Below, piece by piece: positions 13,738 through 61,533 of a DNA stretch of 64,000 bases. The DNA lies in assembly GCA_964473455.1 (NCBI GenBank), contig CAYYQX010000002.1:45086-109085 (forward strand), read 5' to 3'. A program made the translations under genes and the position numbers. The DNA is from an uncultured Muribaculaceae bacterium (lineage in GTDB: Bacteria; Bacillota_I; Bacilli_A; RF39; UBA660). Positions within the stretch are counted from its first letter, which is position 1; each line of letters begins with the position of its first letter. The notes beneath the pieces are model-generated. The model was not told where the DNA came from and did no database searches. It saw nothing but the letters and a program-made list of their open reading frames with translations.

Positions 13738-14463
13738 ATGAATATAGCAATTATAACTGCTGGTGGGATTGGGGCAAGAATGGGCAACAAAACGCCAAAA
13801 CAATTTATAAAAATAAATAAAAAACCAATAATCGTTTATACACTAGAAAGATTTGAAAATAATGATAATATTGATAAAATTATATTAGTTTGTTTAAAAA
13901 AATGGCAAAAAAAACTAGAAAAATTTACTATAGATTATAACATTACAAAAGTGTGCTCAATAATAGAAGGCGGGGAAACTAACTTTGAAAGTATAAAAAA
14001 AGGTGTAATGGAAGCACATAGCAAATTTAAAGATGATGATATTGTTATAATGCACGATGGTATTAGGCCAAATGTCTCAGGCGAAGTCATAGATGACTCG
14101 CTTAGAGTTTGCAAAGAATTTGGGAATAGCACATCAGTAATACAATGTGTTGAAGTAATGATGCTTACAGAAGATAAAATATGTTCTACAAGTCATGTTC
14201 ATAGAGATAAGCTAATGAGAGCGCAAACTCCACAAGCTTTCCATATTGGAGAACTTATTGAATTATACAAAGAGGCAGATAAAAAAGGAATTACTAATTC
14301 TACTTCGTTGTGCTCACTGTTTGTGGAACTAGGAAGAAAAGTATATTTATCAAAAGGATCAGAAGCAAATATAAAATTAACAGTCCCAGTAGATATAGAA
14401 ATACTTAAAACACTATTAAAAAATGAAAGAAGAGTTAATAATGCTAGAAAAAATGAAAAATAA
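13738..14463 (+). CDS. tarI: ribitol-5-phosphate cytidylyltransferase-like (TarI/IspD family, CDP-polyol synthase)
   Basis: 241 aa. N-terminus IAIITAGGIGARMGN..PKQF...KPII matches the TarI/IspD signature closely (TarI: AGGIGSRMGN..PKQF..KPIL). Confidence 0.75.
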   Translation: MNIAIITAGGIGARMGNKTPKQFIKINKKPIIVYTLERFENNDNIDKIILVCLKKWQKKLEKFTIDYNITKVCSIIEGGETNFESIKKGVMEAHSKFKDDDIVIMHDGIRPNVSGEVIDDSLRVCKEFGNSTSVIQCVEVMMLTEDKICSTSHVHRDKLMRAQTPQAFHIGELIELYKEADKKGITNSTSLCSLFVELGRKVYLSKGSEANIKLTVPVDIEILKTLLKNERRVNNARKNEK

Positions 14464-15369: not shown

Positions 15370-17160
15370 TTATTGACTATTATCCGCAACATACTTAGAT
15401 ATATACAAAATAATACTCTTATTACTAATCTTATCCAATCTTTTATTTGCTGGAATAGATTGACCTATAATAGTTCCATTAGAAGAACTACTTTCCTTAG
15501 ATACAAACGAAACACTAAATCCATTATTAGTAAGCCAGTTTTTCGCACTTACTTGCGTATATGACGTAAAATTAGGCAAAACACTATAAAATGTATTACT
15601 AGTAAACTCTGATCCAATAATAGGCTTTAAATAGGTATTATTAGGACTATAGTTAAATGAAGTAGAGTAATTGTTTGTAATGCCTAAATTATTCTTCATC
15701 GAACTTACTACCGCATTAACACTGTCTTTATTTAAAATATAATCCCATAATACTAATTGCATATTCTCATCATATATCATTTGACCATTACCTTGAAGAA
15801 GTAGGGAATCAATATTTACTTCATTATTATTAGTAATTAATATTTCTTTAGCTAAATCATAAAACGATAATATCTGATTAGTAGTAAAATTGGTATCAAC
15901 ATTATTTGCTATAGCCTCTAATACCTTAGATACTTGATCAACACTATTAACTGTTTTTAACTTTTCAATAATTGAATTGATTAATAATTGTTGATTTTGT
16001 TCACGATCTAAATCTCCATTAGTTAAACTATTTCTATTTCTAGCAAGCACTAAAGCTTGCTCACCGTTTAATGTTTGAAGGCCTTTATTAATACAAACAG
16101 CAGTACTACTACGATCACTGTCTCCTGTACACAAATATTGAGGAACATCAACTGTAACGCCACCTAACGCATTAACAAGTTTAACAACGCCTTTAAAATT
16201 AATCATTACGTAATAATCAACAGGAATATCAAAGTAAGCTTCTATTGTATCAATAGTACAACTAGCTCCATACCAAGAAGAGTGGGTGATTTTGTTTTCT
16301 ATTTTATCTTCAAAACAAGTAATAGGAACATAACTATCTCTTGGAATACTAACCATTGTAATATTTGAAGTATTAGGGTTTATTGTAAGTAAAATTAACG
16401 AGTCACCATTAGCTGTACTACTGTTGATACCTTCGCTTTCTGAATCAACACCAATTAGTAATATACTAAAAGGATCATTGATATCTTTGTTAGAAATTAT
16501 TTCTTCTTTTTCTAATTCTTTTGTTTTTGTAACAATAGTTTTAGTTTCTGAACTAATGTTAATAAATTTTTCAATTGAAGTAAACATAGAAATATAGTTA
16601 CTAGTAATGAATATTGCTTCAACTTCTTTATCATATAAAGCTGATAATAAAGTCGCAAAACTACTATATGTTTGTAAATCTAAGTTAAGATTATTTTCAG
16701 TTATTATTTCATTACTAATAACATATCCTTCAATAGAAGTGACATCATCTATAATACCGACCTTTTTAGTATTAATGTTTTCTAGAGTTACTGTAGAATC
16801 AGATAGAACAACTAAGCTAGTAGAGTAGGTTGAAAAGTTTTTACTAACTTCATCAATAGATGAATATACTTTATTTATAATTAAACTTCCAAAAACATTT
16901 ACGACGATATAAACAATTAGAAAAAGCATAAAAATAGTATATCCAGTAAATTTCTGCTTCTTTTTTAAAAAGTTAATCATTTCTGTAAATATTAAAACAT
17001 CTAGTGCTAGTAAAAGACCCATACCTAGATATCTACCTGTATTTTCAATACCATTTAGTAAAAATACATTATATAATAAATAGGCATTAGTAACTAAAGC
17101 TACTATTGATAATAAAAAAATGTTTAATTTTTTAAAAACCACTTTTTTTTGCTTTTTCAT
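15370..17160 (-). CDS. LytR-CpsA-Psr (LCP) family glycopolymer-to-peptidoglycan ligase with a C-terminal PASTA-like domain
   Basis: 596 aa. N-terminal TM helices. LCP core motif DSLILLTINPNTSNITMVSIPRDSYVPI. The C-terminal roughly 70 aa (AKNWLTNNGFSVSF...GTIIGQSIPANKRL...ILYIS) fits a PASTA fold. Confidence 0.7.
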   Translation of the reverse strand: MKKQKKVVFKKLNIFLLSIVALVTNAYLLYNVFLLNGIENTGRYLGMGLLLALDVLIFTEMINFLKKKQKFTGYTIFMLFLIVYIVVNVFGSLIINKVYSSIDEVSKNFSTYSTSLVVLSDSTVTLENINTKKVGIIDDVTSIEGYVISNEIITENNLNLDLQTYSSFATLLSALYDKEVEAIFITSNYISMFTSIEKFINISSETKTIVTKTKELEKEEIISNKDINDPFSILLIGVDSESEGINSSTANGDSLILLTINPNTSNITMVSIPRDSYVPITCFEDKIENKITHSSWYGASCTIDTIEAYFDIPVDYYVMINFKGVVKLVNALGGVTVDVPQYLCTGDSDRSSTAVCINKGLQTLNGEQALVLARNRNSLTNGDLDREQNQQLLINSIIEKLKTVNSVDQVSKVLEAIANNVDTNFTTNQILSFYDLAKEILITNNNEVNIDSLLLQGNGQMIYDENMQLVLWDYILNKDSVNAVVSSMKNNLGITNNYSTSFNYSPNNTYLKPIIGSEFTSNTFYSVLPNFTSYTQVSAKNWLTNNGFSVSFVSKESSSSNGTIIGQSIPANKRLDKISNKSIILYISKYVADNSQ

Positions 17161-21000: not shown

Positions 21001-21840
21001 TTATTTATTTTTTTTCAAAGTAAAACAATCACCCAAATATGGAATATCAGGGATAGATTCATATTTATTATTAACCAACATTTCAAAAAATATTTTTATA
21101 TCATTTAAAACTTTAATTTGCTCCGCTTTTTCAGCATATAATTTATTTGAAACAAAATAAATTTCCATTTCAAATATCTTATACCAAAAGCTTAATAAAA
21201 AGGCCAAACGGTCTGTATTCGTATTAATATATTTTGGGGAGTAGTCTAAACACATATTATAGAAAAAATTGCTTAGCAATGTAGAAATACTCGAAAAATT
21301 AAAACCACCAATAGAACAACAATCCACATCAACAAAATAATGATTCGAACACGCATCAATTATAATATTATCAAAACTAAAATCACCAAGAATGATTTGA
21401 TTATTGTGAATTTGTTTTAATGTTTCAGAAATATTTTTAATTATTTCTAAATACATTTCGAATGGTAGTTTTGTGTCATTTATATCAAACAAAGGGTTTG
21501 CTCCTCGTATATAAGGCATAACACAACCAACTAATATAGAATTTTTATCAATTATTTTGTGTGTTGGGATAACAACATTTGCTAGTCCGTTTTTTAAAAA
21601 TAATAGTTCAAGTTTTTGCTCTCTATTAAAGCAACCAATATCATTATATAATTTATACAAAAAGTCTCCACACACAAATAAAGCACTTTCTGAATAAGAA
21701 ACATTAGTTAAAAGTGTCAATTCTTTAAAATTAATATCTTCTAATCTTAAAACTTTCATATTTTCCCCGCTTTTATAGTGCTTATTATAAGCAAATTGTA
21801 TTAAGCTGTCAATAAAGAGTTTTTTTGAGCTAAAAAACAA
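21001..21840 (-). CDS. protein-kinase-like fold protein (choline/ethanolamine kinase or APH family, LicA-like?)
   Basis: 279 aa. Brenner-type catalytic loop ILGDFSFDNIII, with G replacing the usual H, and a downstream FVDVDCCSIGG that resembles the DxD/DFE metal-binding motif. Confidence 0.35.
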   Translation of the reverse strand: MFFSSKKLFIDSLIQFAYNKHYKSGENMKVLRLEDINFKELTLLTNVSYSESALFVCGDFLYKLYNDIGCFNREQKLELLFLKNGLANVVIPTHKIIDKNSILVGCVMPYIRGANPLFDINDTKLPFEMYLEIIKNISETLKQIHNNQIILGDFSFDNIIIDACSNHYFVDVDCCSIGGFNFSSISTLLSNFFYNMCLDYSPKYINTNTDRLAFLLSFWYKIFEMEIYFVSNKLYAEKAEQIKVLNDIKIFFEMLVNNKYESIPDIPYLGDCFTLKKNK

Positions 21841-30097: not shown

Positions 30098-30625
30098 ATG
30101 AAAAAAGGTTTTACTTTACTAGAAATGTTAACCGTTTTGGTTTTAATTACTTTAATAGTTTCTATTACTTATTCTGTTTTTCAAAAACAAATAGAAACTT
30201 CTAAGCAAAAACTATACGATAATCAAATAAATATGATTGAAAAAGCTGGCAAGGATTATAACTTGATGAATTTAAATATCAAAGGAGTAATGATATCTAC
30301 ACTATTGGGAACTGATTTAATCAGCAATGAAACAATTGTTAATCCAATAGATAAGAGTACTATTACTGGATGTGTTATTTTTGATGAAAATAGTTATAAT
30401 CAAACAGAATATGTATATGAAAGTGACTTAAATACTTGCTTAGTTAATGCTTACAACAGTTATAACGTGTTATATGACAGTGAGGTTGTTCTTTTAACTG
30501 AACTAGTAAATACTAATTATATTAGTTTAAGTGATATTACAATAAGTGGTAATGTTATGACGGGTTGTATGATGTTAGTGAATGATGAAGTTATTTATGA
30601 AAGCAATGTTTCAAACTGTAATTAA
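30098..30625 (+). CDS. type IV pilin-like / competence pseudopilin (prepilin-type N-terminal cleavage-methylation domain)
   Basis: 175 aa. N-terminus MKKGFTLLEMLTVLVLITLIV is the classic G|FTLLE prepilin motif followed by a hydrophobic helix. Confidence 0.6.
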   Translation: MKKGFTLLEMLTVLVLITLIVSITYSVFQKQIETSKQKLYDNQINMIEKAGKDYNLMNLNIKGVMISTLLGTDLISNETIVNPIDKSTITGCVIFDENSYNQTEYVYESDLNTCLVNAYNSYNVLYDSEVVLLTELVNTNYISLSDITISGNVMTGCMMLVNDEVIYESNVSNCN

Positions 30626-52640: not shown

Positions 52641-53723
52641 CTATTTTGTCAAATTTTTCCTTTCAAATATAACATTTGTCTTAAGGACAAACAGTGTGAC
52701 AATAACAAATAATACCGCATAAATTATATAACCTAATACTCGATTATTTATAACATATACAATAGAAGCTAGAGAAAAAAGGACATTAATTACATAAATT
52801 ATTAAAACTGTTTTTGGATGTGAAAATTTTTTATTTAATAATTGATGATGAATGTGACACTTGTCTGGCATTGATACTTTTTGACCTTTTAATTTTCTTC
52901 TTAAAATGGCAAATAATGTATCTAATATTGGAATGGCTAGTATTAATAAAGGAACAACTATGGCAGAAGCTAATACGTTTTTAAAGCCTAACAAAGTTAT
53001 TATTGAAATAATAAAGCCTAAGAATAAAGATCCAGAGTCACCCATAAATATCTTAGCTGGATAGAAATTATGAATCAAAAACCCTAAACAAGCTCCAAGC
53101 ATGATAAAAGTAAGCTGAAAAGGAAGTGCGAACTGTCCTAATATTACAGTTATAATTCCAATAGTTAAAAAATAAATTGAACTAATTCCTGCCGCAAGAC
53201 CATCTAACCCGTCAATCAAATTCATACAGTTAATACAACCAAGCATAAATAAAATAGTAATCGGATAAGCAAAAATACCAAAATTTATATAAATACCAAA
53301 AGCATTAATTTCATTTAAAATAATCCCACCATAAACTACTACTATCAATGAGGCGATAAATTGAAAAAGAAGCTTTATTTTTGCAGAAATAGGTTTTATA
53401 TCATCCATTATACCAATAAATACAATAATAAAACTTCCAATTAATATAGATATCATTTTGTCATTAATAATCCCAAAAACCATATAGCCAAATAAAAATG
53501 CAGTATATATCGCAAGGCCGCCCATTCTTGGCATTGGAACCTTATGAACTTTTCTCTCATCAGGCTTGTCCATCGCACCAATATAAATCGCTAATTTTTT
53601 AATAATTGGGACAATTAAAACAGAAATTAAGAATGCAGATGAGATCATAAGTAATATTTCAAGAACTATTTTATCCATAAACTTCACCATGCTAATATTA
53701 ACACAATTTCTAAAACTTGACAA
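52641..53723 (-). CDS. tagO: undecaprenyl-phosphate N-acetylhexosamine-1-phosphate transferase (TagO/WecA family, PNPT superfamily)
   Basis: 360 aa with about 10-11 TM helices. Cytoplasmic loop motifs DDIKPISAKIKL and MPDKCHIHHQLL (HIHH). Size matches TagO/WecA rather than MraY. Confidence 0.7.
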   Translation of the reverse strand: MSSFRNCVNISMVKFMDKIVLEILLMISSAFLISVLIVPIIKKLAIYIGAMDKPDERKVHKVPMPRMGGLAIYTAFLFGYMVFGIINDKMISILIGSFIIVFIGIMDDIKPISAKIKLLFQFIASLIVVVYGGIILNEINAFGIYINFGIFAYPITILFMLGCINCMNLIDGLDGLAAGISSIYFLTIGIITVILGQFALPFQLTFIMLGACLGFLIHNFYPAKIFMGDSGSLFLGFIISIITLLGFKNVLASAIVVPLLILAIPILDTLFAILRRKLKGQKVSMPDKCHIHHQLLNKKFSHPKTVLIIYVINVLFSLASIVYVINNRVLGYIIYAVLFVIVTLFVLKTNVIFERKNLTK

Positions 53724-53763
53724 TATTTTGTTTAACTTTAAATATATTTATTATATAATAGAT

Positions 53764-55482
53764 ATGGTGAATGATATGAAGGAAAAAAATATTTTTATAA
53801 GCATTGTAGAAATACTATTGTTAGTAACTGCTGTTGCTTATTTTGTGATAACTATATTTTTTATTGAAGATAATAAAATATTTCATTTAATTAGTGCTGC
53901 TCTTTTATCAAGTGGTTTAATTATTCGCTTTATTGAAAACGTATCTAAAAAAAAGTCTTTATATAAAATTTTGTTTTCTTTTATTATTAGTGCTTTTGTA
54001 ATTTTTAATATCTTGCACGTTTTTGGATTTTTTTATGAAAATAAAACTTTATTTGGAGATTTTTATAACACTTCAATAAACAATTTACTTTCTTTTGCGG
54101 AACAAAATAATATTACTGTTGAACAAAGCTATGAATATAGTGACACTGTTGAAGAATTTAACATTATTAGTCAAAGTGTTTTTGCTAATACTGAATTAAC
54201 AGAAGTAACTTCTGTTCGAATAGTTGTATCTTTAGGTCCCAATTATGATAAGGAAGTAATTGTTCCTAATTTAATTGGACAAACAATAAATGATTTGTTA
54301 TTAATCAAAAAAGAATTGTTTTTAAATAACATTGTTGTTAATTATGAAACAAGTGATCAGTACGCTAAAGATGTTATTATTGATCAGTCTTTTAAAGGGC
54401 AATGTAAAAGAAATACTTTAATAACATTTACTATTTCTCTTGGCAGTGAAGTTTTAGAAACAAATATGATTTCACTAAAAGACATGTCTTTGTTTGATGC
54501 TACTTTATGGTTAAAACAAAATGGAATAAAATATAATTTAACTTATGAATTTAATGATGTTAAAAGAAATTATATTGTTAGTCAAGATATTCAAGAAGGG
54601 ACTTCAGTTAATTCTTCTATGACAATCAATCTTATTGTCTCAAAAGGTAAAAGCATAACTGTACCAAATTTACTCGATATGACAAGTGATGAAGTTATAA
54701 ATTGGATAATAGACAATGAACTAAAAATTGAATTTAGTGATAGCTATGATACTGCTATTCCTCTTGGAAAAATCATTAGTGCTAATTATAATGAAGGAGA
54801 CATAATTGAAGTTCAAACACTAGTTAAAATAGTAACTTCTAAAGGACAATTACTTTTTCCTGGATTTACTTCTTTAAATGATTTTAGAACTTGGGCTAGT
54901 AAAAATAGTATAAACTATAACGAAGAATATCAAATGAGTACTACTGTTGCTAAAGGCAATATCATTAGCTTTTCAGTTGGTACTAGCGCTATTATTGACG
55001 TTAATAGTAACATTACTGTTTATGTTTCTAGTGGTCGCCCTGTTACTGTTCCAAACTTTTATGGCCAATCACAAAGCAATATTACTAATACTTGTAATAA
55101 TATAGGCTTAACTTGTGCTTTTTATGAATCTGGTTATTCTAGTGTTAGTGCAGGTAGTTCAATTGGCCAAAGTATTAAAAGTGGTGTTGTAGTGGTTGAA
55201 GCAACTTATCTTTCAATTGGCCTAAGTAAAGGACCAGCTCAAAATTTCACTGTTCAGATAAATCAAAGTTCAATTCAAAGCTGTATTGGAAATTCTGACT
55301 GTACTATTAACTATTTAAGACAATTATTTGCAAATAATTATCCCGGTGTGACTGTTAATTTTGTTTTAAAAACAAGTAGTGTTTTCCAATTTGCCGGTAA
55401 TATTCATGAAGATTCAGCAATTAAAGATGGTTCGCTTGTTACGCAAGGAAAAACATATACAATTACAATTACTAAATCATAA
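53764..55482 (+). CDS. membrane protein with 5-6 tandem PASTA-like domains (no kinase or transpeptidase domain)
   Basis: ORF track gives 53689..55482. The probable start is MVNDMKEKN at 53764. Four N-terminal TM helices, then repeats beginning VPNLIGQTINDL, MISLKDMSLFDATLWLKQNG, VPNLLDMTSDEVINWI, PGFTSLNDFRTWASKNS and VPNFYGQSQSNITNTCNNIG, each about 65-70 aa with a PASTA-like pattern. Confidence 0.55.
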   Translation: MVNDMKEKNIFISIVEILLLVTAVAYFVITIFFIEDNKIFHLISAALLSSGLIIRFIENVSKKKSLYKILFSFIISAFVIFNILHVFGFFYENKTLFGDFYNTSINNLLSFAEQNNITVEQSYEYSDTVEEFNIISQSVFANTELTEVTSVRIVVSLGPNYDKEVIVPNLIGQTINDLLLIKKELFLNNIVVNYETSDQYAKDVIIDQSFKGQCKRNTLITFTISLGSEVLETNMISLKDMSLFDATLWLKQNGIKYNLTYEFNDVKRNYIVSQDIQEGTSVNSSMTINLIVSKGKSITVPNLLDMTSDEVINWIIDNELKIEFSDSYDTAIPLGKIISANYNEGDIIEVQTLVKIVTSKGQLLFPGFTSLNDFRTWASKNSINYNEEYQMSTTVAKGNIISFSVGTSAIIDVNSNITVYVSSGRPVTVPNFYGQSQSNITNTCNNIGLTCAFYESGYSSVSAGSSIGQSIKSGVVVVEATYLSIGLSKGPAQNFTVQINQSSIQSCIGNSDCTINYLRQLFANNYPGVTVNFVLKTSSVFQFAGNIHEDSAIKDGSLVTQGKTYTITITKS

Positions 55483-55510: not shown

Positions 55511-58500
55511 TTATACCTCTTCAACTGTTAGTTCAACTCTGAATCTGTTTTGATCATTAACTGACAAACTATATTTTTTATTACCGACTGTAACAGTGGC
55601 TGTAGCTTTTCTAAATAAGTCGTGCAATTCACCAAAGTCATCGATATTACCAGTAATTGTTCTAAAATATATTACATATTTTCCAACAGATAGTGTTGAA
55701 AGATCCACTTTACCTGTTGTATTAAACCAAGATCTTGCTTTTGATAGTCCATCATTTGTTCTTAGTATTAATTCTTCTCCTATTGTTGAACCTATGTTAT
55801 ATGTAAATTTTTCTTCTGTTACTGTATTTTCTAAGATTAAATATCTCGTAATACTTGTTGTTGAACTGTAATTACCTTGTAGATTAAATGAGTTACCAGT
55901 TATATTTAAGCTAGCTCCAGTAAAGCTAATAGATGTATATGTATTAAACATATTAGATGAAGCTTCAGGTTCAGTTTTAGAAATCAAACCTTTTTCGTAT
56001 ATGAAGAGTTCTATCGGAAAGGCTTTTTTATAATTGTTGTTTCTAAATAAATAACCTCTTTCATCACTGTCTGTTGCTTTTTTAGTTACATCTTTTAAAA
56101 ACAAATTACTAAGTATTTCTTTTGTCTCATAGTTTGAGCTTCTAGCTCTAATGTAAATAGTATATTCACCTTTGGCAACGTCTTTTAAACTGACATTTCC
56201 TCTAAACCATGTCTCAGTATAAGTATGACTTTTATCGTTATAAACAGTAGTTGGATGGTCGTTTAAATACCTTTCCAGTGGTAAAACTACTTCATAACCA
56301 TTGGTGTTGTTCTTTAGAATCAAGCTATATTGAATTAAGGTATCTTTTGTATTATTAATTCCAATCATAGCTAAGGAACCATTTATTTCCAATAAGTTAG
56401 TGTCTGAATTATATTCTAGTTTATTAAAGTATAACTCTCCTGTTAAAGTAGTATAACTAGTATTTTCAACGTATACTTTTATACTCTTTGTAGTTGTATT
56501 ATCATCAGTATCAGTTGCGCTATATGTTAAATCATATGTTCCAGCAACTGTCTTATTAACGTTATGTGTAACTTCAATTTCAGTAATGATTCCATCTTCT
56601 AAGTCAGATGCGGTTACACCTTCTAAATAAGTTAAGCTTTCATTTACTTTCATATAGATATTAGTTGTTCTGATAACTGGTTTAGCATTTGATACAACTT
56701 CAATACTAACTGTTTTTGTTGTTGTTAAATCAAGACTATTTGTTACACTATACTCTACAGTATAAGTTCCAACTGTTGTTGCATCAACATCATTACTTAT
56801 GATATCTATTTGATCAGTAATGTTACCATCTGTTGGATCTTCTGCCCCTACTCCAAAGTATGGATCAAAAGTTGTATTTTGTAATATTTGTCTATTATTA
56901 GCAACTATTTTAGGTTTATATGTTTTTGTGATTTCAACTTCTATTGTTTTGCTTACTGAAAAGTTATTATCATCAACTACGGTATATGTTAAATCAAATG
57001 TTCCATAATTAGATGTTGTAAGTTCCGGATAGTAAGTTACTTTATCAGATAAATTTCCATCTTCAGTATCGCTAGCAGTTACATCTGTTAAGAAGTCATA
57101 ATACGTATCTTGTTCAATAGTAATGTTAGAAGCTATAATCGTTGGTTGATTGTTTTTAACAAAAAGATATTCTCCTTTAATATATCCATAGCTTTTACTA
57201 AATGAATAGTTACTACTTGAAATATTTTGATCATCGTCTAATGAGGTATCAGTATATACCTTATACCAAGCATTATTACTTTCATCGTATACTTTATCAA
57301 AGACAATAAAAGGCACCATTGGAACTGAAAAAGAATTGTTTTTTATTATATATATTGTATCTGAAGTATCACTTGGTTCTTTTTTAATAGGAGTATCAGT
57401 ATTACTTACCTTAATACCTAAAGTATTGGAATTATAGTCTTGCCCGCCATACATTAAATCTCTATTGTAAGCAATTCCAGCGGCTTTTTCACCCCAATAA
57501 GGGTCTGATGCATATTTGACATTCATTCCACTACCCTTGTTGCCGTAATGGCTACCAAAGTAACGCCAATCATATGGATTACTATAGCCAGAGCCAAAAG
57601 TGCTGGCATGCGCTAGAATAGATTCTCTAATTGAAGTATATGTATTTGCACAAGTATACACGCAACCATCATTTGCTCCGTGACCAAAGATGTTAAACTT
57701 TCCAAATGATAAAGCACTTGTTCCAGTAGCAGATTCATTTATCGCTGCTGAAAACGATAAAAGGGCATTTACTCCATATGTTTCTTGAGCTTCAATAAAG
57801 TATGCACCCTGCCCATATAAAAGAGATATTCCTACTCTACTATTTGCCGTAAACGCTCCTGTTGCAGTATCAATATAATAACTTTGACTTTGTAATAAAT
57901 TAGAGCTAAAAGAAAGAGCAATTATTTGATTAAAACTAGTTGCAGTATATCCTGTTTTACTGTGAGTTGGTAAATACATATAGTAGTTATAGTAAGGGTT
58001 AGTATAATTAATACTGTTTTCATAAGTATTATTTTTATAATCATCTATCATTGTAATATAGTTTTCATAAAAATAGTTTCCATCAAAACTGTAATAGTTT
58101 TTATTAGTTAAAAACATTGTTGGCGCTGCACCTAAGTTAATATACTCAACTGAAGTGTTTTCATAATAAGCATGCCAAAATTTACCACTACTTGTTTTAG
58201 TATAGTACGTATAAACTTTTGGAATAACTTTTTCTGTTAGATTAGTCCCTGAAACATTATTGGTAATATAATTATTCATAGATATTGTCAGATTGCCAAT
58301 CAAATGATATGTTTTAACTTCTCCACTTTGAGTGATTGCGTCATATTCATAGGCTCCATTTTTATCTAGTAAAACTCCGTCATTTGTATAAACATTATCA
58401 TTATTTACAACAACATAAGTTTTTGAAATAGTAGAAATTGGAATTATATTCACATTACTTAAACTAACCCATCCAGTAAAACCACTTATTTTTATTTTAA

Positions 58501-58879
58501 CAGAGTTATAAGTGTCATTAAATTCCAAAAAGGCCATATCTAAATATGTATTTCTTCCTGTTATATAAGTATATTCTCCACTTAAATTTTCACTAGTATA
58601 AAGATAAATTAAATCAGAGCTTGTTCCAGTAGATTTTGCTAAAGCATATGATGCATTAACAATAACATCATTTTTTTTAATCACAGCAACAAGATTCGCA
58701 CTCGCTTCATAAGTTATCATTTTATTATAAGCACTAGTATAATTATCAAAAGTTTCTTCATTAGTTGGAGTTCCTGCTTTATCTACCGTATAAACTTTAT
58801 AAGTTGATGTTGCCAAAACAGAATTAGGCATTACGAAAAAAAATAATATTAAAAATATTAATAATACTACTTTTTTCAT
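55511..58879 (-). CDS. large secreted GH73-family peptidoglycan hydrolase (N-acetylglucosaminidase) with three tandem Ig-like (DUF5011-type) repeats
   Basis: 1122 aa. Signal peptide MKKVVLLIFLILFFFVMPNSVLA. GH73 core GQGAYFIEAQETYGVNALLSFSAAINESATGTSAL...FGHGA and YASDPYWGEKAAGIAYN. Three repeats of about 75 aa (TSNYGTFDLTYTVVDDNNFSVSKTIEVEI, TTVGTYTVEYSVTNSLDLTTTKTVSIEVV, TVAGTYDLTYSATDTDDNTTTKSIKVYV). Confidence 0.6.
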   Translation of the reverse strand: MKKVVLLIFLILFFFVMPNSVLATSTYKVYTVDKAGTPTNEETFDNYTSAYNKMITYEASANLVAVIKKNDVIVNASYALAKSTGTSSDLIYLYTSENLSGEYTYITGRNTYLDMAFLEFNDTYNSVKIKISGFTGWVSLSNVNIIPISTISKTYVVVNNDNVYTNDGVLLDKNGAYEYDAITQSGEVKTYHLIGNLTISMNNYITNNVSGTNLTEKVIPKVYTYYTKTSSGKFWHAYYENTSVEYINLGAAPTMFLTNKNYYSFDGNYFYENYITMIDDYKNNTYENSINYTNPYYNYYMYLPTHSKTGYTATSFNQIIALSFSSNLLQSQSYYIDTATGAFTANSRVGISLLYGQGAYFIEAQETYGVNALLSFSAAINESATGTSALSFGKFNIFGHGANDGCVYTCANTYTSIRESILAHASTFGSGYSNPYDWRYFGSHYGNKGSGMNVKYASDPYWGEKAAGIAYNRDLMYGGQDYNSNTLGIKVSNTDTPIKKEPSDTSDTIYIIKNNSFSVPMVPFIVFDKVYDESNNAWYKVYTDTSLDDDQNISSSNYSFSKSYGYIKGEYLFVKNNQPTIIASNITIEQDTYYDFLTDVTASDTEDGNLSDKVTYYPELTTSNYGTFDLTYTVVDDNNFSVSKTIEVEITKTYKPKIVANNRQILQNTTFDPYFGVGAEDPTDGNITDQIDIISNDVDATTVGTYTVEYSVTNSLDLTTTKTVSIEVVSNAKPVIRTTNIYMKVNESLTYLEGVTASDLEDGIITEIEVTHNVNKTVAGTYDLTYSATDTDDNTTTKSIKVYVENTSYTTLTGELYFNKLEYNSDTNLLEINGSLAMIGINNTKDTLIQYSLILKNNTNGYEVVLPLERYLNDHPTTVYNDKSHTYTETWFRGNVSLKDVAKGEYTIYIRARSSNYETKEILSNLFLKDVTKKATDSDERGYLFRNNNYKKAFPIELFIYEKGLISKTEPEASSNMFNTYTSISFTGASLNITGNSFNLQGNYSSTTSITRYLILENTVTEEKFTYNIGSTIGEELILRTNDGLSKARSWFNTTGKVDLSTLSVGKYVIYFRTITGNIDDFGELHDLFRKATATVTVGNKKYSLSVNDQNRFRVELTVEEV

Positions 58880-58890
58880 AATATCCTCCT

Positions 58891-60108
58891 TTATATAGAT
58901 TTATAAGGGTTTGTTTCCGTTCCTTCCCCTTTAAATTCGAACGTTTTATCAATATAAATAACTGCATAACCATTATTGGTACTACTTATACTGCTATTAG
59001 TAAAAGCACCACTTACAATACTCCAAACTGTTGTTGTATTCATACTATTAAAAGTCCAAGAGTTTTTTGCTAACCAATTATTGCTTAAACAAGCACTTGA
59101 AATATTATTTTGATTGCACGAAGAATTTATTGTAGCTTTAATAATATCGCTAACTGATAATGTGCCAATATATCCTCCAGAATTTTTTCCTTTATAAATC
59201 GTTGCTTTTTCAGAATTTATAATATTTGTTAAACTATTACCAATAACCGTTGTAATGTAACCAACATCCCAAGAAGCATCATATACTATAAGCTCATCTT
59301 CTAGATTAATGTTTAAACTGGAAAATAATAAACTGTTTGTACTTGAAGTGGCTAAATAAGCTCCACCCGACAAATAACTATCGTTTGTATAAAAAGATGT
59401 CGTATTGTCAAACTTAACATTTTGATTTAATTTCAATAAAACCTTTACGCCTTCACTTGTAACAGAAATTATCTTTCCATTGTAGTTAAACAAAGAAATA
59501 TTATTAGCTAATTCTGCTTCATTGCCTCTAAACACCAAATCCCCATTACTCATTTGATATAAGCCAGAACCACTTGTGATTACTTTGTTTCCTAGTAAAT
59601 TTTCAATTGTCGGATAATCAAATCCATTTAACTTAATGCTAGAGTATGTTTTATCGTTATATTCAGTTGCGATTATATACATATTACTATCTGGATTGTG
59701 AATTGAATTTAAATATGCGATAAACTCAGATGAAAAATTACTATTAACAAGATTTACTTTTTCTAAAGTGTATATTGCTTTATTGACATTTAATTTTGCA
59801 AAGAAAGCTTCGCAATAATCACTATCAATAAAAATGCTCGCGTCACAACTTGTTAAATCATAATACCCTGTCCCATTATAAGCTAAGTCATATGATATTT
59901 GTTCGACATCATATTGCAAAATAAATTTTTTAATTTCGTTATCTATATATAACCCATTAACACTGTTATAGTTAAGTGTTTCTGAGTAATTATTGTTAAC
60001 ATTTCTTATTTGAATGAACAAAAATATAAGCGTTATTGTAATAAAACTGGCTACAATTAAGGTTTCTGCAAGCATAAAACCTTGGCTATTTTTTTTTATC
60101 ATTATCAT
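58891..60108 (-). CDS. large prepilin-like protein (type IV pilin / pseudopilin N-terminal domain)
   Basis: 405 aa. N-terminal KKNSQGFMLAETLIVASFITITLIFLF is a G|FxLxE prepilin cleavage-methylation motif plus TM helix. The remaining roughly 370 aa are Ser/Asn/Thr-rich and uncharacterised. The gene lies 12 nt upstream of the GH73 gene on the same strand. Confidence 0.5.
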   Translation of the reverse strand: MIMIKKNSQGFMLAETLIVASFITITLIFLFIQIRNVNNNYSETLNYNSVNGLYIDNEIKKFILQYDVEQISYDLAYNGTGYYDLTSCDASIFIDSDYCEAFFAKLNVNKAIYTLEKVNLVNSNFSSEFIAYLNSIHNPDSNMYIIATEYNDKTYSSIKLNGFDYPTIENLLGNKVITSGSGLYQMSNGDLVFRGNEAELANNISLFNYNGKIISVTSEGVKVLLKLNQNVKFDNTTSFYTNDSYLSGGAYLATSSTNSLLFSSLNINLEDELIVYDASWDVGYITTVIGNSLTNIINSEKATIYKGKNSGGYIGTLSVSDIIKATINSSCNQNNISSACLSNNWLAKNSWTFNSMNTTTVWSIVSGAFTNSSISSTNNGYAVIYIDKTFEFKGEGTETNPYKSI

Positions 60109-60204: not shown

Positions 60205-61533
60205 ATGCTTAAAGTTTTTGACTTTGAAAAACTACCAGTAGTTGAGATTGTTAATGATATTCTAGTTGATGCTTCAAAAAGAGGAGCCTCTGATATTCAT
60301 TTTGACGCTCATGATGAATTTATGAAAATTAGAATTAGAATAGACGGAAAATTAATTGATTATGCTGAAGTTCCTAATGGCATTAAGAAAAACTTAATAA
60401 CTCGTATTAAAATTATATCAGGGATGAACATTACTGAATCAAGACTTCCCCAAGATGGGGCTATTAAGAAGAATCTACAAGATATGGATTTAGACTTACG
60501 TGTTAGCTGTTTACCTACTAATTTAGGGGAAAAAATCGTTATTCGTATCTTAGACTATAGTTTAAGTTTAAATGGTATTGAACACTTGGGTTTTAGCGAG
60601 AAGAATTATCACAAAGTTTTAAAAATGATTGGTATTCCAAACGGAATAATCTTAGTAACAGGAGCAACTGGAAGTGGTAAATCTACTACTGTATATTCCG
60701 TTCTTCAAAGACTTAATAAAGAAGAAACAAACCTTGTGACTGTTGAAGACCCTATTGAAATGAACATTGAAGGTATTAACCAAGTTCAAACAAATAGTGA
60801 AATTGGTCTTACTTTTGCAACTGCCCTAAGATCTATTTTTAGACAAGACCCTGACATTATCATGATTGGAGAAATAAGAGATACTGAAACAGCTCAAATT
60901 GCCGTTAGAGCTTCAATTACAGGACATTTGGTTTTATCAACTCTGCATACTAACGACTCTTTAACAACAATTGAAAGACTTATTGATATGGGTGTTGAAA
61001 GATATTTATTATCTAGCTCACTATCTGGCATAATATCACAAAAACTCGCTCGTAAATTATGTCCAAATTGTAGAAAAAAAAGAGCTACAAATGAATATGA
61101 AAAAAAATTATTTAAAACTGTTTTAAATAAAGAGGTAAATGAAATATATGTTGCGGATGGCTGTGAAGAGTGTTCAAATGGTTATAAAGGAAGAATTGCT
61201 ATTCATGAAGTATTATTGATTAATGATGAAATAAAAAATGCTATTAATACAAACATGGACAGAGAAAAATTGAGAACTTTAGTTTATAACTCAGATGTTA
61301 TTACCTTATTACAAGACGGTCTTGAAAAAGTTGAAAGCGGTCTTACTACTGTAGAAGAGTTATTGAAGATTATTGAACTAGAAAACGATGAAAAAACAGC
61401 TGGAAAAACAGATCTAAAGTCTAGTATAGAGCTTGCCAACTTAGCTCACAGTAAAAAAGAAGAAAATAAAGTAGTTGAAAATGTAGCTGCCGAAAAAGTT
61501 GTTAATATTAATGCATTAGATAATGATTTATAA
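60205..61533 (+). CDS. type II secretion / type IV pilus assembly ATPase (GspE/PilB/ComGA family)
   Basis: 442 aa. Walker A VTGATGSGKSTT, Asp box, Walker B IIMIGEIRD, His box LVLSTLHTND, and tetracysteine motif CPNCRKK...GCEECSNGYKGR. Confidence 0.8.
   Translation: MLKVFDFEKLPVVEIVNDILVDASKRGASDIHFDAHDEFMKIRIRIDGKLIDYAEVPNGIKKNLITRIKIISGMNITESRLPQDGAIKKNLQDMDLDLRVSCLPTNLGEKIVIRILDYSLSLNGIEHLGFSEKNYHKVLKMIGIPNGIILVTGATGSGKSTTVYSVLQRLNKEETNLVTVEDPIEMNIEGINQVQTNSEIGLTFATALRSIFRQDPDIIMIGEIRDTETAQIAVRASITGHLVLSTLHTNDSLTTIERLIDMGVERYLLSSSLSGIISQKLARKLCPNCRKKRATNEYEKKLFKTVLNKEVNEIYVADGCEECSNGYKGRIAIHEVLLINDEIKNAINTNMDREKLRTLVYNSDVITLLQDGLEKVESGLTTVEELLKIIELENDEKTAGKTDLKSSIELANLAHSKKEENKVVENVAAEKVVNINALDNDL

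Follow-up and report, generated by a model that had tools for sequence, protein, structure and literature searches.

The gene and its reading frame

Here we describe a gene on the plus strand of a 64,000-nucleotide stretch of DNA from an uncultured bacterium (assembly GCA_964473455.1, contig CAYYQX010000002.1, positions 45,086 to 109,085; we call the whole stretch the window and count positions from its first letter). The gene encodes a membrane protein with an array of PASTA domains, and it belongs to an unnamed, conserved family of enzyme-free, membrane-anchored seven-PASTA proteins that are encoded amid cell-wall genes. Nearly all descriptions of PASTA domains concern those attached to Ser/Thr kinases and penicillin-binding proteins (PBPs). 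The open reading frame (ORF) and the transmembrane (TM) part of its product are as follows, with lengths in amino acids (aa):

53689–55482, plus strand: longest ORF call for the protein with three TM helices and seven PASTA-fold domains; one intact frame, 597 aa
53791–54021, plus strand: three TM helices, at residues ~35–58, 63–85 and 89–111 in the numbering of the 597-aa call, from hydropathy

The base composition of the window is strongly AT-rich, with a G+C content of 25–31%. The 597-aa call is present as an exact copy in a Logan contig, and an exact database copy of the protein (P0001) is recorded without a name. The true start is probably M30 at 53776, giving a protein of 568 aa, because the homologues begin just before the first TM helix (TM1), and inspection of the sequence places a GGTGA 5 nt before this ATG; M26 at 53764 is a possible alternative. 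A promoter-like TTAACT-16-TATAAT at 53732–53759 lies inside the long ORF call and is weak evidence in so AT-rich a genome. The first 29 residues of the 597-aa call are probably untranslated, and only ~5–35 residues precede TM1.

The original prediction had counted four N-terminal TM helices, but hydropathy shows three, as does an AlphaFold2 (AF2) model with helices at 6–29, 34–56 and 60–82 in the 568-aa numbering, and what had been taken for the first of the four is most likely the stretch that the longest ORF call adds at the N-terminus. Lys-rich segments, one at the N-terminus and one in the loop between TM2 and TM3, predict an N-in/C-out topology, which would place the PASTA array outside the cell, in the extracytoplasmic location expected of a PASTA domain.

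PASTA repeats and predicted fold

The Pfam PASTA profile (PF03793) matches the protein in six stretches, far beyond chance (E 3.3e-36, 123.5 bits against a cutoff of 23.2), and the repeats are thus of PASTA type, as had been proposed. We took the borders of the repeats from a hidden Markov model (HMM) built on the protein's own repeats, which delimits six units of 64–69 aa. Together with the distal domain that follows them, the units are listed below with residues in the 597-aa numbering and with the evidence for each.

54046–54252, plus strand: PASTA 1, aa 120–188; Pfam, repeat HMM, AF2 and Foldseek; orthologous copies 46% identical
54253–54450, plus strand: PASTA 2, aa 189–254; begins VIVPNL; Pfam, repeat HMM and AF2
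54451–54654, plus strand: PASTA 3, aa 255–322; Pfam (best stretch, 262–319), repeat HMM and AF2
54655–54852, plus strand: PASTA 4, aa 323–388; begins ITVPNL; invariant Trp; repeat HMM, alignment and AF2
54853–55044, plus strand: PASTA 5, aa 389–452; invariant Trp-Ala; repeat HMM, alignment and AF2
55045–55242, plus strand: PASTA 6, aa 453–518; begins TVPNF; invariant Cys pair; repeat HMM, alignment and AF2
55243–55479, plus strand: distal seventh domain, aa 519–597 (a 79-residue tail); divergent PASTA fold

Repeats 2, 4 and 6 begin with the pattern (V/I)(I/T)VPN(L/F). The Cys pair of repeat 6, C469 and C476 (C440 and C447 in the 568-aa numbering; nucleotides 55093–55095 and 55114–55116), lies seven residues apart and is invariant in 27/27 aligned members of the family; the two residues could form a disulfide or mark a functional site.

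The AF2 model of the full-length protein, built on a 27-sequence alignment of the family, has a mean predicted local distance difference test score (pLDDT) of 88.4 and begins with three long helices, after which come seven alpha+beta modules, in which one alpha-helix packs on a three-stranded beta-sheet as in the PASTA fold. Five or six repeats had originally been counted; the model has seven PASTA-fold domains. The seventh carries an extra short helix and a ~20-residue loop, is unrecognised by Pfam, and is the most variable module of the ectodomain in the family, with 39% identity. On the predicted structure, then, the protein comprises three TM helices and seven PASTA-fold domains, the last of which has diverged past detection by Pfam.

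A search of the model against the Protein Data Bank (PDB) with Foldseek returned only PASTA structures as significant matches, and so the fold is that of PASTA rather than of Big or SPOR-like domains, the other possibilities that had been raised. The top match is the Stk1/PrkC ectodomain of Staphylococcus aureus (3py9; E 2.7e-12, 25% identity), followed by 3m9g and PknB (2kui, 5e12) and then by the PASTA domains of PBP1 and PBP2x at ~15% identity. By sequence, 3py9 and 3m9g are the sole matches in the PDB (phmmer E 5.8e-8).

A conserved family in uncultured Bacilli

A large protein search yielded at least 508 homologues. The best 120 of these are 494–891 aa long and have PF03793 as their sole Pfam domain; each carries six PASTA repeats (three score five by the self-built HMM) and, fragments aside, a distal tail of ~75–110 aa, with three TM helices in nearly all. 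A profile search gave 711 representative clusters at E<=1e-30, and the top 150 mostly share this architecture, which is maintained across homologues at 31–60% identity. In the 27-sequence alignment the mean column identity is 44% and 32 columns are invariant. Orthologous copies of each repeat are 44–52% identical and the repeats within the protein only ~20–35%, which indicates that every position in the array is under conservation of its own. Conservation is lowest in the TM region (mean pairwise identity 24%), although the family alignment does show some conserved polar positions (Asn, Ser and Tyr) within its three helices. The much stronger conservation of the ectodomain relative to the TM region suggests that the protein functions outside the cell.

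Of the 92 relatives found in species-representative genomes, nearly all come from metagenome-assembled genomes (MAGs) of uncultured organisms sampled from the gut, the rumen and the like. Among the names that these genomes carry are Bacilli bacterium, Clostridium sp. CAG:1193, Firmicutes bacterium CAG:822, Bacillales bacterium UBA660, Candidatus Coprosoma, 'Mollicutes' and 'Erysipelotrichaceae' bacterium, and a few others (Muribaculaceae, Ignavibacteriales) look like binning or labelling noise. The organisms so named probably belong in or near the GTDB order RFN20. Four closed chromosomes among the relatives (OZ007022.1, OZ007038.1, OZ007025.1 and JBAMOY010000001.1) measure 1.20–1.54 Mb. Two distinct members, with 43% and 41% identity to the query (L007 and L010; JAQUFI010000021.1 and JAQUFI010000111.1), are assigned to one MAG (STCSWMC_198); either they are paralogues or the bin is mixed.

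Relatives at 41–60% identity (P0002, P0006, P0026 and P0031) bear the generic names 'PASTA domain-containing protein' (NCBI) and 'beta-lactam-binding protein with PASTA domain' (JGI). Neither Pfam nor NCBIfam has a curated family model for three TM helices with six PASTA repeats and a distal domain. A full-text literature search found no function or description of the family, and nothing relevant on stand-alone PASTA proteins or on fusions of PASTA with LCP (LytR-CpsA-Psr) ligases such as the one described below. The domain and its generic annotation are therefore already known, while the family with three TM helices and seven PASTA domains, its pairing with a glucosaminidase and an LCP-PASTA protein, and the breadth of kinase-less arrays appear to be undescribed.

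The profile search also returned multi-PASTA proteins of 1100–3300 aa (P0121, P0169, P0214, P0165 and P0168). In three of them Pfam counted 27 (P0121), 30 (P0169) and 18 (P0214) PASTA domains and recognised neither a kinase nor a PBP domain. Like the family, these giants are kinase-less and made mainly of PASTA repeats, and they score strongly against the family profile; they differ in being far larger and in their layout, and P0121 additionally has modules of adhesin or cellulosome type (Big_9, cadherin-like, PKD and dockerin). With arrays of 18–30 repeats among them, PASTA domains free of a kinase or a PBP are a wider phenomenon, common among metagenomic proteins and largely undescribed.

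The constancy of the array raises the possibility that it serves as a passive spacer or a ruler of wall thickness, a rigid rod that keeps an inner-wall zone or tethers the membrane to the wall and has no enzyme as client. All 120 homologues have six repeats plus the distal domain, and so constant a number suggests a role for length; the giants look structural or adhesive; and work cited in PMC5786024 has the PASTA repeats of the kinase StkP influencing septal wall thickness. Each repeat, however, has its own conserved signature, such as the invariant Cys pair or Trp, which argues for specific contacts over mere length, and a spacer leaves unexplained the conserved glucosaminidase gene next to the array gene (see below). 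We therefore give this explanation little credence.

Absence of a kinase domain

Pfam and NCBIfam scans of the protein found no Pkinase or transpeptidase domain, so that the original description of a membrane protein without either, and with PASTA repeats making up its whole ectodomain, holds. The NCBIfam model of the Stk1-family PASTA kinases, NF033483, matches only partially: TM3 and PASTA 1–3 align to the TM and PASTA part of the model (positions 329–563) with 138.9 bits against a cutoff of 450.

To place the gene in its genomic context we surveyed 81 loci, covering ~10 kb around each homologue (L001 is identical in sequence to the window). With a PrkC kinase domain as query and the HRDxKxxN motif, a search of ~510,000 aa of ORFs found no Hanks-type kinase in the 64-kb window or within ~10 kb of the gene in the 81 loci. 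Two weak kinase matches were resolved as small ORFs that resemble Bud32 or Kdo kinases. One of them lies in the window:

21001–21759, minus strand: small soluble protein-kinase-like ORF, ~252 aa, motif ILGDFSFDNIIID...FVDVD, in the wall-polysaccharide cluster and adjoining a gene for a GT2-GtrA protein (GT, glycosyltransferase)

Its matches are weak (Pfam Pkinase 15.8 bits, NCBIfam Bud32 27.8 bits, and also Kdo kinase and the LanKC kinase region); its product is no PASTA kinase and may be a sugar or small-molecule kinase. The other, a 294-aa kinase-fold-like ORF at L039:11766-12647 on the minus strand (FPDLVNPGNIIF...LLDYDG), is a single case directly downstream of the PASTA homologue and convergent with it; it has no Pfam match and no homology to the ORF at 21001–21759 at E 1e-3. 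Long N-terminal extensions were also considered as hidden kinases and rejected: those of P0118 (288 aa before TM1) and P0137 (346 aa) are of low complexity and charged, and Pfam recognises only PASTA in these proteins.

We also asked whether the gene could be a chance ORF or a remnant, left when a frameshift or truncation cut the C-terminal part of a PASTA kinase from the rest. The partial match to NF033483 is what such a fragment would give. However, the ORF is intact, and the probable start codon of the divergently transcribed tagO-like gene lies ~97 bp from that of the PASTA gene, which leaves no upstream coding space for a kinase remnant; no locus has a kinase-like ORF adjacent upstream. 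The same layout of three TM helices, six PASTA repeats and a tail, in place of the single TM helix of the kinases, recurs in all 120 best homologues, and the architecture is identical in more than 100 diverged homologues at 31–60% identity. The lack of coding space, the three helices and the conserved layout together exclude a detached kinase C-terminus, and we regard this explanation as effectively refuted.

The match of TM3 and PASTA 1–3 to NF033483 and the structural matches to kinase ectodomains indicate that the module probably derives from a PASTA kinase. Both are also in line with a split sensor, in which the array would sense muropeptides or lipid II and the three-helix domain would signal to a separately encoded partner, be it a PASTA-less kinase, a membrane signalling protein or a component of the divisome. 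Three TM helices in essentially all members, with their few conserved Asn, Ser and Tyr residues, would suit such a role, and the small soluble kinase-fold ORFs in the window and in L039 could supply a partner. We nevertheless consider a split sensor unlikely. The TM region through which it would signal is conserved far less than the repeats, the cytoplasmic N-termini are absent or of low complexity, and no kinase, phosphatase or other signalling gene recurs near the 81 loci. The kinase-like ORFs themselves are single cases that score far under the family cutoffs and resemble small-molecule or Bud32/Kdo-type kinases in a polysaccharide cluster.

Gene neighbourhood

The genes of the window that bear on the role of the PASTA protein are the following:

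52641–53678 (longer call to 53723), minus strand: TagO/WecA-like GT4 polyprenyl-phosphate N-acetylhexosamine (HexNAc)-1-phosphate transferase, called as 345 aa; divergent neighbour
55511–58879, minus strand: secreted N-acetylglucosaminidase of glycoside hydrolase family 73 (GH73), 1122 aa, with three immunoglobulin (Ig)-like domains; Pfam Glucosaminidase E 2e-12, Bact_surface_Ig-like E 9e-18
15370–17160, minus strand: LCP glycopolymer ligase with one C-terminal PASTA domain; Pfam LytR_cpsA_psr E 5.4e-43, PASTA E 3.1e-9; NCBIfam CpsA/TagU-like
58891–60108, minus strand: com/type IV pilus-like protein, 405 aa, with a prepilin-type N-terminus and a weak match to ComGD
60205–61533, plus strand: T2SSE-family ATPase, com/type IV pilus-like
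30098–30625, plus strand: N_methyl pilin, 175 aa
12856–13728: LicD, in the wall-glycopolymer cluster
13738–14463: IspD/TarI-like cytidylyltransferase, in the wall-glycopolymer cluster

The best conserved neighbour of the PASTA gene is the convergent GH73 glucosaminidase gene rather than tagO. The stop codons of the two convergent genes are 28 bp apart, and no intrinsic terminator was found between them. The glucosaminidase has a signal peptide, and Pfam recognises no wall-anchoring module in it. Downstream sequence of at least 2.5 kb is available for 63 loci; in 39 of these an orthologue of ~1100 aa is convergent and downstream, within 1.2 kb in 33 of the 39. The 39 loci span PASTA-protein identities of 31–60% while their upstream genes vary, and the glucosaminidase forms the largest neighbour cluster (42 loci). 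Counted with kinship ignored, adjacency also follows the type of distal tail: the glucosaminidase is adjacent in 29/29 loci whose PASTA protein has a long tail (at least 87 aa, often Cys-rich, as in L036 and L058), and in ~8–9/33 loci with a short tail, the type found in the window.

Divergent transcription from a TagO/WecA gene had been stressed in the original prediction. Such a gene is present (Pfam Glycos_transf_4 E 8.7e-39; NCBIfam places it closer to WecA/TagO than to MraY, with both matches below cutoff), but the arrangement is not a feature of the family: across the 81 loci it is kept, besides L001, only in the closest relatives L002–L004, and the copy in L038 lies ~7.5 kb off. As a conserved functional partner, tagO was rejected on this count. 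The genes upstream of the PASTA gene run on the opposite strand throughout and serve varied wall-glycopolymer functions: GT2 in 28 loci, plus GT4, a Wzx-type flippase and an ABC-2 permease.

The fusion of LCP and PASTA that had been reported in the window is confirmed by Pfam matches to both domains. It is one of two PASTA proteins visible in the window, the other being the array itself; the original prediction had taken the pair as a sign of an unusual expansion of PASTA modules. Such fusions recur in the relatives. In three loci (L012:6929-9097, L038:15051-16985 and L040:15162-17423) the LCP-PASTA gene lies directly beside the glucosaminidase gene, forming a three-gene wall cluster. In the relatives, com-like pseudopilin genes are often found downstream of the PASTA gene (neighbour cluster 3, 17 loci). 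A further secreted wall hydrolase is encoded close to the array gene in one subclade (neighbour cluster 8; L064:5132-7675 and 10 other loci): an 848-aa protein that combines seven ricin-B lectin repeats with a GH25 lysozyme domain, its gene lying upstream of the PASTA gene.

A large wall-glycopolymer cluster occupies 2144–23000 of the window. Besides LicD and the cytidylyltransferase it encodes GT2, GT1 and GT4 transferases, a Polysacc_synt_2 dehydratase, epimerases, GtrA-domain proteins and an amine-oxidase-like flavoprotein. This gene content suggests a teichoic-acid-like polymer containing ribitol phosphate or choline phosphate as its product.

The neighbourhood also bears on whether the protein is an accessory of PBPs. 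On this explanation it would provide in trans what class B PBPs of PBP2x type in other Firmicutes carry in cis, namely PASTA domains, and would guide the SEDS-bPBP pair to un-crosslinked peptidoglycan. The PASTA domains of PBP2x and of S. aureus PBP1 do match in structure, a reference cited in PMC6273383 ties mid-cell localisation of PBP2x to its PASTA domains, and a polytopic anchor could pack against FtsW/RodA-type proteins. Yet no PBP, FtsW/RodA or mur/div gene is among the recurrent neighbours, and in both sequence and structure the repeats are closer to kinase PASTA domains (24–25% identity) than to those of PBPs. We consider such a role distinctly unlikely.

A possible wall scaffold

Our preferred interpretation, which we hold tentatively and with slightly less than even confidence, is that the protein acts outside the cell, without a kinase, as a scaffold that attaches to the wall and directs wall enzymes to their sites, with the GH73 glucosaminidase as its likely client. 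The three TM helices anchor the array, and the rod would reach outward into the wall or across it; if its shape is extended like that of the PknB and Stk1 ectodomains, it would be roughly 25 nm long, an estimate taken from other PASTA ectodomains. By analogy with other PASTA domains the array may bind peptidoglycan or its precursors; lipid-II or wall-teichoic-acid precursors had originally been suggested as its targets. It would recruit and position extracellular wall enzymes, as a scaffold or ruler that needs no kinase. The most likely client would be the large secreted glucosaminidase encoded alongside, and the LCP-PASTA glycopolymer ligase a possible second one. The variable, membrane-distal seventh domain may act as a tip specific for a partner or a polymer.

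The precedent for this interpretation comes from StkP of Streptococcus pneumoniae. Its distal PASTA4 attaches to the NM modules of the glucosaminidase LytB (dissociation constant, KD, 22 uM) and governs the septal placement of LytB; among streptococci, this distal PASTA type and LytB are distributed together (PMC10434722). The protein described here would perform the enzyme-positioning half of the role that the StkP ectodomain has with LytB, minus the signalling half. According to PMC5786024 and work cited there, PASTA repeats have roles beyond ligand sensing and affect septal wall thickness independently of muropeptide binding. Not every PASTA domain binds muropeptide, lipid II or beta-lactam, PonA2 being a non-binder (PMC6273383).

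Several points weigh against the scaffold interpretation. The link to the glucosaminidase is drawn from gene neighbourhood only, and since the genes are convergent they are not co-transcribed. The adjacency could be synteny inherited within a clade of small genomes, and, with a com-like pseudopilin block often nearby as well, some of the pattern may reflect gene order passed on by descent. The short-tail subgroup to which the window belongs keeps the adjacency in only about a quarter of its loci, the close relative L004 lacks it, and the association between tail type and adjacency was counted without phylogenetic correction. Finally, three TM helices with conserved polar residues exceed what a simple anchor needs, which leaves room for signalling or for a partner in the membrane.

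The scaffold interpretation can be extended to a broader proposal, which we regard as doubtful: that in reduced-genome Bacilli PASTA domains have been freed from kinases and PBPs to become a general targeting device. The rod would recruit the daughter-cell-separating GH73 enzyme through its distal domain, and the glycopolymer ligase would carry a PASTA domain of its own, so that enzymes are placed without phosphorylation, possibly after loss of the PASTA kinase.

How far PASTA domains serve in ligand sensing, and how far in the physical positioning of wall enzymes, is the open question that the family addresses. A family of anchored PASTA arrays alone removes the kinase and so offers a natural test of scaffold function, of the ligand and of glucosaminidase recruitment, with the practical limit that the hosts are uncultured.

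Comparison with known PASTA systems

Among PASTA-bearing PBPs of class B/A (PBP2x, S. aureus PBP1 and PonA2), the fold, the extracellular location and the association with peptidoglycan are shared with the protein described here, and the structural matches are weaker than those to kinases. These PBPs carry transpeptidase and pedestal domains, with the transpeptidase N-terminal to PASTA in the PBP2x type; the present protein has no such domain in the Pfam or NCBIfam scans, and PASTA forms its entire ectodomain.

The PASTA Ser/Thr kinases (S. aureus Stk1/PrkC, 3PY9 and 3M9G; Mycobacterium tuberculosis PknB, 2KUI and 5E12; S. pneumoniae StkP, 5NOD) have in common with it a tandem extracellular PASTA array, and they are its closest matches in both structure and sequence. 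Of the features that define the Stk1/PknB/PrkC family it has the PASTA repeats, and it lacks the Hanks kinase domain, the NF033483 score of at least 450 and the single TM helix before PASTA. The kinases have a kinase domain and a juxtamembrane region, one TM helix and 3–5 PASTA domains, whereas this protein has neither of the first two, three TM helices and seven PASTA-fold domains. The terminal domain also differs, being a divergent PASTA domain here and Ig-like in Stk1/PrkC (3PY9). The likeness to StkP extends to the glucosaminidase: the distal PASTA domain of StkP recruits one as its partner, and in the family described here a glucosaminidase is encoded by the conserved neighbour gene.

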